Positions 15,001 to 17,379 of a stretch of DNA of 17,379 nt are shown one piece after another. The DNA comes from a virus. Its lineage: Duplodnaviria; Heunggongvirae; Uroviricota; Caudoviricetes. The position numbers were made by a program. The stretch's first letter is position 1; the number at the start of each line of letters is the position of its first letter. The stretch spans positions 1 to 17,379 of IMG/VR virus record IMGVR_UViG_2690316318_000021; one strand, 5' to 3'.

Positions 15001-17379
15001 CGCTGAAAATATTAATGGAGGCATTCATGTATAAAATTACCGCCACAATTGAAAAGGAAGGTGGCACACCTGTTAACTGGACAAGATACTCAAAATCTAA
15101 ATTAACGAAATCAGAATGTGAAAAAATGCTCTCAGAAAAAAAAGAAGCAGGCGTCTCCAGAGAGCAAAAAGTAAAACTGATAAATTTTAATTGCGAGAAG
15201 TTTCAGTACTCGTAAGTTTCATTATATTAAAATTATAACTTCATAGCTAATTATAAAAAATCAACCACGTCCGCCAGTATTCTGTATATTTACTGGCGGT
15301 CATATCGTAAGAGGTATGGCAATGAATCTTGTGACACTCAAAACGTGGGGAAAACTCAGGTATCCAGATAACCCACCATCAATATCAACGCTGAGACGAT
15401 GGGCAAGAAATGGAAATATTTATCCTGCACCTGAGCTACACGGGAGGAGTTACAGGGTGGACTCTGAAGCATTCTATATCAACCCGAATAAGGTTAGTAC
15501 CGATATAACACACCATCAGCCTAATGGGAGGCAAGGGCGAGACAGTCCACTACTGGAGAAGTTAAAAAATGCAGCGGAAAAAATACGACCCCAATTTACC
15601 TAAAAACTTAACATATCGAAGAAGAGATAAAGCATACTACTGGCGCAACCCTCTGACTAAAGAAGAAATTACGCTAGGTAAAATTTCCAGAAGAGATGCA
15701 GTGGCGCAGGCAATTGAAGCCAATAATTATATATATAAAAATTTTTCTCCCGTAGCTTTAATTGAAAAGCTTAAGGGAGCGGATTCATTTACCATGACAA
15801 ACTGGATTGAGCGTTACAAAACAATTCTTATGAGGAGGAAGGTATCCAGAAACACTTATAAAGTCAGAGTAAATCAACTGGAAACAATAAAAGAAAAACT
15901 GGGAGGGATTTTACTTACAGAAATAACCACTCGCCATATTGCCGATTTTCTTGATTCGTGGATTGAAGGAGGGAAAAACACGATGGCAGGCTCAATGCGT
16001 TCTGTGTTATCTGATATGTTCCGCGAGGCCATTGTTGAAGGACGTATATCTCAAAATCCAGTAACGCCAACAAGAGCACCGAAAATAGTAGTTACAAGAG
16101 AACGACTGAAACTAAAGACATACAACAGTATCAGGGAGGCAGCAGATCAACTTCCGGCATGGTTCCCATTAGCTATGGACTTAGCCCTCGTAACAGGGCA
16201 ACGTCGCGAAGACATAACGAATATGCGGTTCAGTGATATTTATGATGATCGTCTCCACATCAGGCAAATTAAGACAGGAATGATGATTGCCATCCCCCTG
16301 TCACTCAGCCTTCCTGTCGTTGGTTTACGACTTGGTGCAGTAGTTGAACGGTGCCGCATGGTAAGTAGAGGGGATTATCTAATCAGTGCCGGGATTAGAA
16401 AAAACAGCCCTGACGGCAGCATTCACCCGGACGGCCTGACAAAAAAATTTGTCGCAGCCAGAAAATTAACAGGTATCCAGTTCAGTGAAAACCCACCAAC
16501 TTTTCACGAGATCAGAAGCCTGGCTGGGCGATTGTACAAAGAAACATGTGGAGAAGAATTTGCTCAGCGCCTACTTGGTCACACATCGGAGAAGACAACA
16601 AAAATGTATCTTGATGAGAGAGAAAAAACGTACTTACTGCTCTGATTTTAACGTAAATGGATTGTTAAATGTATTTTGGTTGTGGTATAACCAAAAAAAG
16701 ACCGGAATACAGAAATTCGAGTAAATTTCGGGGAATTTCGGGGAGACATTTGTAACTGATTGATTTTAAATACAATAAAAAAAAGACCGAATACGATTCC
16801 TGTTTTCGGTCCAGGGAAATGGCTCTTGGGAGAGAGCCGTGCGCTAAAAGTTGGCATTAATGCAGGCTTAGTTGCCTTGCTCTTTAAGAATAGATGACGA
16901 CGCCAGGTTTTCCAGTTTGCGTACAAAATGGTCAGTAAAAAGCGCGTCGGCCATCGTCTTAAATGTTAAAAACCGCCCGTTCTGGTGAAAGAACTGTGGC
17001 GGTTTTTTATTGGAAATCAAAAGACTATTTTAGGCAATTAACAGAGTTTTTTAGCTCGTTCAATAAATGGTTCCAGGTTCATTTTTTCGCCTGGTTTGTT
17101 GGGATCTTCTATCTGTATCACCGAGATGGGCTGGGCGTTAGTTTTGCCACTGTCCACCTCCTTTTGTGCGGCATCATTCAAAGGATACTGTACCAGAGTG
17201 CTGGGGTTAATGACATACAGAGCATTGCCCGGTCGGCATGTCAGCATCACCTCTTCGCGATTAAACGCCCATTTGTCCTTGCCAATTTCAAAACGACTGA
17301 CGGTAATCACCTGAGGTGCCGCCAACGCCGCGCTGGAGCTTGTAAGCAACAAAAACGCCAGAATACTTTTTTTCATCAT

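Follow-up and report, generated by a model that had tools for sequence, protein, structure and literature searches.

A lambda-like prophage of Escherichia albertii sits in the terminator hairpin of the small RNA gene sdsR, a known insertion hot spot for phages. We analyzed a window of 17,379 nucleotides (the whole stretch of DNA considered here) and propose, with a high degree of confidence, that this Rac-like lambdoid prophage was integrated by a lambda-family heterobivalent integrase (Int) into the Rho-independent terminator of sdsR, with the P'-arm layout mapped below. Insertion at sdsR has already been published, and the present case is an ordinary one that adds minor new detail. The features on which the analysis is based are the following.

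15316-15603, plus strand: xis (excisionase), 95-aa ORF
15569-16645, plus strand: int, lambda-family tyrosine integrase with an N-terminal arm-binding domain, 358-aa ORF
16693-16712: -92 element, A7-GACCGGAATACAG, the conserved element of the P' arm farthest from the core, with an orientation opposite to that of the three repeats
16713-16743, plus strand: three tandem arm-type repeats, AAATTCGAGT, (A)AATTTCGGGG and AATTTCGGGG, candidate P'3, P'2 and P'1 sites for the Int N-domain
16753-16765, minus strand: IHF consensus site, AATCAATCAGTTA, H'-like in position, with the arm repeats on one side and the core on the other
16777-16794: phage-supplied part of the core, A8 (U8 tail of SdsR) and the left half-site GACCGAATAC (3' stem arm of SdsR)
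16778-16877, minus strand: sdsR (ryeB) small RNA gene with a hybrid terminator, Rfam RF00111
16795-16801: GATTCCT, terminator loop and probable 7-bp overlap
16796-17008, plus strand: ryeA (sraC), 3' part, antisense to sdsR; the terminator hairpin of ryeA is at 16973-17008
16802-16811: host-derived right half-site GTTTTCGGTC (5' stem arm of SdsR, E. albertii allele)
17038-17379, minus strand: yebY (host flank), 113-aa ORF

Results

The integrase and the host locus

The prophage is of the Rac-like lambdoid type (RecE/RecT, RalR/RalA, Kil and SieB). Its Int matches the Pfam families Phage_integrase (PF00589, 63.5 bits) and Phage_int_M and, at the N-terminus, Arm-DNA-bind_1 (PF09003), with a score of 23.9 bits that is barely over the cutoff of 22. 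Both domains of a lambda-type heterobivalent integrase, catalytic and arm-binding, were thus detected. The protein is 41% identical to the Int of HK022 and 38.6% identical to those of phages 434, HK97 and relatives, in each case over 97% of its length. As in other lambda-type systems, an excisionase gene adjoins int: xis (Pfam PF07825, Exc, E = 4e-15) overlaps the int start.

On the other side of the junction, the full-length Rfam model SdsR_RyeB matches the window over positions 1-100 of 100 with 113.6 bits, to be compared with a gathering score of 38, so that the region is indeed SdsR, as an earlier note on this DNA had stated. The SraC_RyeA model (RF00101) matches 16774-16918 on the plus strand with 173.8 bits. 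Both yebY and sdsR are on the minus strand with sdsR downstream, in agreement with the synteny rule for this small RNA (PMC3333887). The exact YebY protein is present in E. albertii genomes, for example in AP014856 (strain CB9786), and the body of sdsR, its terminator excepted, is exactly that of K-12.

Junctions and attachment site

The central claim of the earlier note, that sdsR has received a lambda-type prophage in its 3' end and that this end is rebuilt by the phage, is borne out by comparison with empty sites and with phage attP sequences. The same int-sdsR-yebY arrangement is carried by 228 of 5426 E. coli genomes, and the remaining 5198 are empty, a genome being counted as empty when it had no int-sdsR-yebY match covering at least 80% of the query. 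Among the matches listed, the alignment of empty E. coli sites with the window starts at about 16772-16778 and extends only to the right; the segment 16693-16776 is therefore not host sequence. As expected at the hot spot, host homology stops within ~25 bp of the sdsR 3' end, at a distance of 131 bp from the end of int. In the phage record PP818812, int, a P' arm corresponding to window positions 16646-16776, the core and a P arm follow each other without interruption, and the same layout is found in two further attP records, whose Int are 73% and 51% identical. Since three phage records (PP818812, OK490361 and OL617042) contain 16646-16776 in full within an uninterrupted attP, this segment is the P' arm of the phage, and the int-proximal junction, attL (B-O-P' in lambda naming), corresponds to 16646-16811.

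A matching copy of the core, expected at the other prophage end, was found in the lysogen E. coli OkiPb01676. Its prophage spans ~41.7 kb, and the phage is 92-95% identical to that of the window. At the pphA-side junction, the host sequence AAAAAGAGACCGAACACGATTCCTGT is joined to the phage sequence TTTCGTCAACAAACG, and the phage side of this attR matches the P arm of PP818812. The reciprocal junction is seen only in the E. coli lysogen because the source contig of the window, CYCK01000013.1 (GCA_001286085.1), ends inside the prophage; the far end was not found either among the contigs carrying the exact Int, which are short or broken inside the prophage. In this strain, the far junction would read ...AAAAAGAGACCGAAAAC-GATTCCT-GTTTTCGTCAAC... 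(host left arm, loop, phage).

When attB, attP, attL and attR are compared, the crossover can only lie within the 11 bp ACGATTCCTGT, and the polymorphic bases that flank this sequence segregate as a crossover inside it predicts. Positions 16777-16794 are identical to the attP of PP818812. The core can be written GACCGAATAC / GATTCCT / GT(A/T)TTCGGTC, that is, the loop GATTCCT flanked by 10-bp inverted half-sites, an organization consistent with inverted half-sites around an overlap of 6-8 bp. By analogy with lambda-type Ints, the overlap probably corresponds exactly to the 7 bp of the loop. We propose that the terminator stem arms GACCGAATAC and GTATTCGGTC would serve as inverted core-type Int sites, and that strand exchange would take place within the 7-nt loop.

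Since the attP of the phage nearly duplicates the 3' stem arm and the U-tract of sdsR, insertion gives sdsR a working substitute end. The original 3' arm would be moved to the far prophage end and, in E. coli, the ryeA promoter and pphA would be displaced with it. Indeed, the ryeA promoter of E. coli is located within the pphA-sdsR spacer (PMC6610125), and in the E. coli lysogen we found this spacer at the far end of the prophage. The 3' part of ryeA present here is severed from its native promoter. A replacement promoter in the P' spacer was considered: PP818812 contains TTTGCA-16-TACAAT, a single weak match for 1.7 expected that we treated as chance, and no promoter match was found in the P' spacer of the window.

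A hybrid sdsR terminator

Positions 16777-16795 read A8-GACCGAATACG, the reverse complement of which is CGTATTCGGTC followed by T8. The A-A mismatch previously noticed in the SdsR stem appears in our fold as a 1x1 A.A internal mismatch, with a folding energy of -11.5 kcal/mol, compared with -15.2 kcal/mol for the perfect E. albertii stem and -15.8 kcal/mol for the stems of both K-12 and the E. coli lysogen. A sequencing error is ruled out, since attL including the mismatch is identical in six independent contigs from different samples. Comparison with other stems explains its origin. The right arm GTTTTCGGTC pairs with GACCGAAAAC in all ten other E. albertii genomes examined, and position 16792, a T in the phage allele, is an A in E. 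albertii and a C in K-12. The mismatch is thus due to the combination of a host 5' arm, GAAAAC in the E. albertii allele, with a 3' arm brought by the phage, which is the common enterobacterial one (GTATTC). The sdsR terminator is almost invariant across the Enterobacterales species surveyed.

Organization of the P' arm

According to our model, the 131 bp from int to the core would constitute a P' arm made of an IHF site, three tandem arm-type sites and the inverted -92 element. The perfect tandem repeat pointed out in the earlier note is confirmed: the window contains exactly two copies of AATTTCGGGG, arranged head to tail (16724-16733 and 16734-16743). With the preceding unit, the TTCG starts of the three repeats are 11 and 10 bp apart. 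Words resembling AATTTCGGGG are not enriched elsewhere in the prophage (18 matches with at most two mismatches, for 20.3 expected). The repeats stand at -80, -69 and -59 in the three attP records as well as in all 17 attL/attP sequences with measured repeat positions. We also aligned 28 attL/attP sequences from no fewer than 12 distinct Int lineages, in which the full-length Int shares 45-95% identity with that of the window. The TTCG columns align throughout, and the -92 element and the three TTCG repeats form conserved blocks, whereas the spacer toward the core is not conserved.

Moreover, the last 3-4 bases of the repeat unit co-vary with a hairpin of the Int N-domain: RRDK or KRDK goes with TTTCGGGG, xxYK with TTTCGTGT, ARRT or SRKT with TTCGGAC, and TASKS with TTCGGAA. 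This co-variation, which involves few independent lineages, runs contrary to overall Int relatedness. Each of the three attP records has, in its P arm, TTTCG sites of the same orientation at ~+125 and ~+146. Pattern, fixed positions and co-variation argue for arm-type sites in both arms, to which Int would bind, and the suggestion that the AATTTCGGGG repeats are the arm-type sites of a P' arm fits by position and layout.

The sole perfect match to WATCAANNNNTTR in the whole window is at 16753-16765. Two of the attP records, pPE4 and ZC-S1, also have a perfect IHF match, located at -42 in both, and comparable ones could be recognized by eye in the same spacer of several relatives. IHF could bind at this position. 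The sites of this Int family were assigned by sequence comparison. A point against the assignment is that the P-arm repeats are less regular than those of the P' arm.

The -92 element

The earlier note had reported that the SdsR 3' stem half and U-tract are partly repeated at 16693-16712, the reverse complement of which is CTGTATTCCGGTC followed by T7. The repeat is real, with one extra base: 17 of the 18 aligned positions agree with the core, a single G is inserted, and the second copy lies 84-85 bp from the core copy rather than the 83 bp first given. Because of the 1-base insertion, an ungapped search with core words missed it and a gapped aligner was required. When the 131-bp spacer between int and the core was shuffled 5000 times with its dinucleotides preserved, 2 shuffles attained the gapped local score of 15; among 126 tiles of equal size cut from the rest of the window, none did. 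Chance similarity can therefore be rejected. The element is present in the attP of PP818812, OK490361 and OL617042, always at -92 from the core loop, and at least 80% of the 28 aligned sequences retain its columns C.GaATA. It resembles the left core half-site and carries an inverted CGAAT.

One reading, given by the earlier note as one of two alternatives, is that the second copy is the scar of an earlier integrant, i.e. a leftover att junction at the hot spot beside which the present prophage would have inserted. In its favor are the match at 17 of 18 positions and the fact that the hot spot does gather remnants, as all ten other E. albertii genomes examined carry a degenerate element with a ~60-aa Int C-terminal fragment adjoining sdsR. 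However, in the three phage records, whose attP is uninterrupted, the copy comes after int and before the arm repeats, its position is constant, and it is kept in 28 elements from many genera despite a diverged flanking spacer. Being fixed in position and conserved, the element travels with the phage, and a scar has almost no chance of being the right explanation. An ancient duplication of the core in an ancestor of the family may nevertheless be its historical origin. We also hold it to be highly improbable that the copy is a working back-up intrinsic terminator of the minus strand, halting sigma-S-dependent sdsR read-through before it runs antisense to int. Its T7 run is on the SdsR strand, the sdsR terminator of the window is weakened by the A.A mismatch, and read-through of the E. 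coli sdsR terminator is substantial and normally drives pphA (PMC6610125). But the U7 tract is not preceded by a G+C-rich stem: no upstream complement is present, and the 75-nt fold (-7.8 kcal/mol, z = 0.21) is equalled by 104 of 200 shuffles. In addition, the T-run is missing in many members that keep the -92 element, for example in L006, L036 and the L053 clade. The description of the copy as terminator-like thus holds for its sequence, and not for a structure with a 5' stem partner. A terminator scan found none at 16693-16712, a result of little weight since it also misses the real sdsR and ryeA terminators.

As a third possibility, the repeats and the -92 element would be bound not by Int but by another protein, such as Xis or a phage or host regulator of int expression. 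These elements are directly 3' of int, the -92 element abuts the int stop codon in many relatives, and together with repeat 1 it forms a dyad, CGAAT-N5-7-ATTCG. We nonetheless consider this very unlikely, as Int possesses an arm-binding domain with which the repeat unit co-varies, and the position, number, ~10.5-bp spacing and distance from the core of the repeats are those of P'1-P'3 in the attP of lambda, where the Xis sites are in the P arm. Altogether, the -92 element is a conserved part of the attachment-site arm of the phage, neither a scar nor a working terminator, and most likely binds a protein, probably Int. It may be a core-type Int half-site within the arm, a fourth site without counterpart in the attP of lambda. 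The latter reading is weakened by a distant clade (Int ~50% identical) in which the element is GACAGGATAT, only 7/10 like the core half-site.

Possible transcription across the junction

As int lacks a terminator of its own before the junction, the int transcript of the lysogen would cross sdsR in antisense as far as the ryeA terminator at ~17008. One could imagine that the abundant SdsR pairs with ~100 nt of the int 3' UTR and triggers RNase III cleavage, i.e. a sib-like retroregulation restricted to the integrated state, although we judge this unlikely. Other hairpins were examined and rejected. An int-sense hairpin at 16670-16711 (11-bp stem with two G.U pairs) has a z of -1.6, and its 5' arm is not conserved in L015 and L102. 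The P arm of PP818812 contains, ~270 bp in, a strong 14-bp hairpin (z = -5.7); as a family feature, a sib/tI-like hairpin was discarded, being degraded in the E. coli prophage and absent in ZC-S1.

Discussion

Insertion of Salmonella prophages in the 3' end of ryeB/sdsR was described by Balbontin et al. (2008, J Bacteriol 190:4075), as summarized in PMC7380047 and PMC3603311 (see also PMC12653942). As far as these summaries go, PhiW104 of Salmonella enterica behaves like the present prophage: its attachment site falls within the final ~23 bp of ryeB/sdsR, a segment internal to ryeA, the prophage restores the 3' end of the small RNA and takes the place of the 5' part of ryeA, and different elements occupy the locus in different strains. 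In contrast with PhiW104, the host is here E. albertii, with the same phage type in the 228 E. coli genomes mentioned above, the prophage is Rac-like, and the rebuilt terminator is mismatched through differing host and phage alleles.

A parallel can also be drawn with lambda and HK022, with which this system shares a full-length homologous Int (38.6-41% identity) including the arm-binding domain, an adjacent xis, inverted core half-sites around 7 bp, three tandem repeats set apart from the core by an IHF consensus, an int-proximal arm of ~100 bp, and two arm-like sites ~125-150 bp out in the other arm. It differs from them in that the target is the terminator hairpin of a small RNA, in that an extra inverted core-like element lies beyond the third arm repeat, and in that arm and core motifs have TTCGG in common.

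Integration into tRNA and tmRNA genes is reported to take place at symmetric stem-loops (Campbell 1992; Williams 2002). In both situations, a conserved RNA hairpin with a 7-nt loop gives the tyrosine recombinase its dyad symmetry, and the phage brings a replacement 3' end so that the gene remains functional. Here, on the other hand, the hairpin is a small RNA terminator and Hfq-binding module and not an anticodon or T-arm. Integration into tRNA and tmRNA genes is also mentioned in PMC3603311.

The current understanding of site-specific recombination or of SdsR is unchanged by these results, which provide a clean and well-resolved case of a phage that uses the terminator hairpin of a small RNA as recombination core. 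Recombination experiments could be planned, or integration vectors designed, with the help of the attP map, which places the core half-sites and the overlap, the IHF site, three sites in P' and two in P, and one additional conserved element. The hybrid A.A terminator is a natural marker of the crossover location, and a small test case for the stem damage that the terminator of an Hfq-dependent small RNA tolerates. If retroregulation of int by the sigma-S-dependent SdsR were true, it would tie excision competence to growth phase, and int read-through would also act as a phage-driven substitute for RyeA, the antagonist of SdsR. Finally, the Salmonella ryeA/ryeB hot spot is extended to E. albertii and E. 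coli, and an Int homologue or remnant is found directly at the sdsR 3' end in 28 of 120 Enterobacterales loci, i.e. in about one quarter of the species genomes sampled.

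Insertion of the prophage into the sdsR terminator

Phage integration at the 3' end of the small-RNA gene ryeB, or sdsR, has already been published (Balbontin et al. 2008, as related in PMC7380047 and PMC3603311). A Yersinia prophage has also been described between an integrase gene and yebY (PMC12653942), and the sdsR 3' flank is variable (PMC3333887). The window locus is a further case of this known integration, in a different host.

Features around the junction
15316-15603: excisionase, 95-aa ORF overlapping the int start
15569-16645, plus strand: int, 358-aa ORF
16693-16712: second copy, A7-GACCGGAATACAG
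16777-16795: core copy, A8-GACCGAATACG
16774-16918, plus strand: SraC_RyeA (Rfam)
16778-16877, minus strand: SdsR_RyeB (Rfam, 113.6 bits, full model)
17038-17379, minus strand: yebY, beyond sdsR and ryeA

The host side of the window was matched in all 5426 E. coli genomes. Among the matches listed, those in prophage-free genomes begin at 16772 or 16778, the last bases of sdsR, and in 228 of the 5426 genomes the match extends through int. Alignment with an empty K-12-type site revealed nothing related to the left of the A-run. As homology to the empty site ends there and int adjoins on the phage side, the prophage does lie at the sdsR 3' end, as the earlier note had claimed. The matching core copy expected at the other prophage end is present in E. 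coli OkiPb01676, a lysogen of a related phage (~41.7 kb, 92-95% identical) inserted between pphA and sdsR, where the pphA-side junction reads host AAAAAGAGACCGAACACGATTCCTGT then phage TTTCGTCAACAAACG.

The segment between int and the core could have been host DNA or, as also suggested in the earlier note, the scar of an earlier integrant. In the phage record PP818812, whose Int is 95% identical, int and the equivalent of 16646-16776 run unbroken into the core, beyond which lies the same sequence as at the OkiPb01676 pphA-side junction. This uninterrupted attP and the empty-site comparison rule out both alternatives. Together with the OkiPb01676 junction, they establish that 16693-16776 is the int-proximal phage arm (P' arm). 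When attB, attP, attL and attR were compared, the polymorphic bases flanking ACGATTCCTGT segregated as predicted by a crossover within those 11 bp, which comprise the 7-nt terminator loop GATTCCT and two stem pairs per side.

PP818812.1, titled 'Actinobacillus phage vB_Apl-pPE4', shares 93-95% identity with the E. albertii and E. coli prophages and has the enterobacterial sdsR terminator as attP core. Its stated host, Actinobacillus pleuropneumoniae, seems doubtful and could reflect contamination or host mis-assignment.

A fixed attP layout

In 28 of the 120 Enterobacterales loci surveyed, in genera including Citrobacter, Enterobacter, Lelliottia, Kluyvera, Phytobacter, Buttiauxella, Rahnella, Yersinia and Siccibacter, the sdsR 3' end is directly flanked by an Int homologue or a fragment of one (41-92% identical). 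Alignment of 28 attL/attP sequences showed a diverged 40-bp spacer and, as conserved blocks, the core, three TTCG-centred repeats and an outermost C.GaATA, which is the second copy. The offset of the repeats from sdsR is constant within 1 bp, with spacings of 11 and 10 bp (17 sequences measured). The sole perfect IHF consensus of the window (16753-16765) lies between repeats and core. Two further records have an intact attP, OK490361 and OL617042, whose Ints are 73% and 51% identical, respectively.

Layout common to all three attP records (positions from the first base of the loop)
-92: inverted element
-80, -69, -59: repeats
-7, +9: core half-sites
~+125, ~+146: TTTCG sites of the other arm, same orientation

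The arrangement agrees with that of lambda attP (core, H', P'1-P'3, P2/P1), plus one additional element. The Int itself contains the lambda arm-DNA-binding domain PF09003, with a score just over the cutoff, and shares 41% identity with HK022 Int and 38.6% with that of the lambda-type phages 434 and HK97.

The P arm of PP818812 (1496-1545, int-sense, ~270-315 bp past the core) also contains a strong 14-bp G+C-rich hairpin followed by UUCUGUUAUU (-32.6 kcal/mol for the folded 86-nt stretch, z = -5.7), at the position occupied by tI/sib in lambda. It is degraded in the OkiPb01676 prophage and absent from the intact-attP phage ZC-S1, and is therefore not a family feature.

Candidate Int-binding sites

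The strings quoted in the earlier note proved exact, and the tandem pair of AATTTCGGGG at 16724-16743 is its sole occurrence in the window. The repeat unit varies by phage in its final three or four bases, which track residues of the predicted beta-hairpin of the Int N-domain.

N-domain hairpin and repeat unit
RRDK or KRDK: TTTCGGGG
AKYK, RHYK or RYYK: TTTCGTGT or TTTCGTTT
ARRT or SRKT: TTCGGAC
TASKS: TTCGGAA

The closest overall Int relatives, L015 and L102 (71-75% identity outside the N-domain), differ from the window in both hairpin and repeat unit, and distant Ints (49-52% identical) agree with it in both. This co-variation, seen in few lineages, supports the repeats as candidate arm-type Int sites, as the earlier note had proposed.

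The second copy lies 84-85 bp from the core copy. When the core word was aligned, with gaps, to the 131 bp between int and the core, the score was 15, matched in 2 of 5000 dinucleotide shuffles and in none of 126 tiles from the rest of the window. The second copy has no stem partner (fold z = 0.21), its T-run is absent from many relatives, and it shows no co-variation with the repeats. The int stop codon directly adjoins it in many relatives. In most lineages it resembles the left core half-site (GACCGAATA); located ~12 bp, about one helical turn, beyond the outer side of repeat 1, it forms with the latter a dyad CGAAT-N5-7-ATTCG. Our best reading of these sequences is that it would be a fourth protein-binding site in the P' arm, with Int as its probable binding partner. 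In the clade where Int is ~50% identical, the element has become GACAGGATAT, a drift that fits neither an arm-binding-domain nor a core-binding-domain reading cleanly.

A hybrid terminator

Across 120 Enterobacterales species genomes the sdsR terminator is nearly invariant, GACCGAATAC-GATTCCT-GTATTCGGTC. Order-wide, few stretches of the locus are as conserved as these 27 bp, which is probably why they make a good att site. The ten other E. albertii genomes examined all have a compensated variant, GAAAAC/GTTTTC, shared by a few further species, and in E. coli a U.G pair occupies this position. The window stem combines the E. albertii allele on the host-side arm with the common allele on the phage-side arm, hence one A.A mismatch. 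The mismatch announced in the earlier note is thus borne out by the fold, and the junction recurs unchanged, with this mismatch, in five more contigs from other samples. The mismatched stem folds at -11.5 kcal/mol; the perfect E. albertii stem reaches -15.2, and K-12 and the E. coli lysogen -15.8 each. The phage also swaps the native tail UCUCUUUUUAU for an unbroken U8. In its body, including the seed region, SdsR is exactly as in K-12.

In nearly all occupied survey sites the phage-supplied left arm is GACCGAATAC. The right arm is ATATTCGGTC in Rahnella, Yersinia and Buttiauxella, so that the top stem pair does not form, whether the site is occupied or empty. Unlike all other survey loci, the GTDB representative titled Shigella flexneri SFBU1023, with the same phage type at sdsR and a frameshifted int, has a terminator damaged in both arms (GACCAACAT...GTATTGGGTC, ~-7 kcal/mol).

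A hairpin at 16973-17008 (CCGCCCGTTCTGG...CTGTGGCGG, T/A runs on each side) looks like a bidirectional terminator common to ryeA (plus strand) and yebY (minus strand). A simple terminator scan misses both this hairpin and the sdsR terminator.

Host, prophage and consequences

The yebY flank is ~89% identical to E. coli and 99.1-99.8% identical to ten genomes encoding an identical YebY, among them AP014856 (Escherichia albertii CB9786). Window 5569-17379 is 100% identical, over the 11.8 kb compared, to contig CYCK01000013.1 of GCA_001286085.1, which stops within the prophage. Rfam recognises several regulatory RNAs in the prophage (RalA, the RalR antitoxin RNA; sok; isrK; a C4-type antisense RNA with a1/b1 targets; sites noted at 15033-15211, 3033-3206 and 665-863, all minus strand). 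Rac-like genes (a RecE-like protein of 886 aa at 11316-13976, RecT, Kil, SieB) make this a Rac-like lambdoid prophage with a different integration module.

A decayed phage of the same family adjoins sdsR in all ten other E. albertii sampled (L125-L134, ~6590-6910 in locus coordinates, equivalent to minus-strand window sequence past 16778); no truly empty site was found among them. The remnant P' arm is ~85% identical to that of the window, with one tandem repeat deleted in nine of ten, and only a C-terminal fragment of ~60 aa is left of Int. The window prophage is predicted to adjoin, probably, such a remnant.

In E. coli, the pphA-sdsR spacer houses the ryeA promoter, and read-through of the sdsR terminator provides for pphA expression (PMC6610125); in OkiPb01676 the prophage displaces both promoter and pphA by ~42 kb. 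The ten other E. albertii genomes appear to have lost the native ryeA promoter region. In Salmonella, PhiW104 lysogeny lowers RyeA and raises RyeB (PMC7380047). Modest additions to what is known of this integration site, none of which we found in the accessible literature, are the constancy of the attP layout, its additional element at -92 and the footprint of a hybrid terminator.
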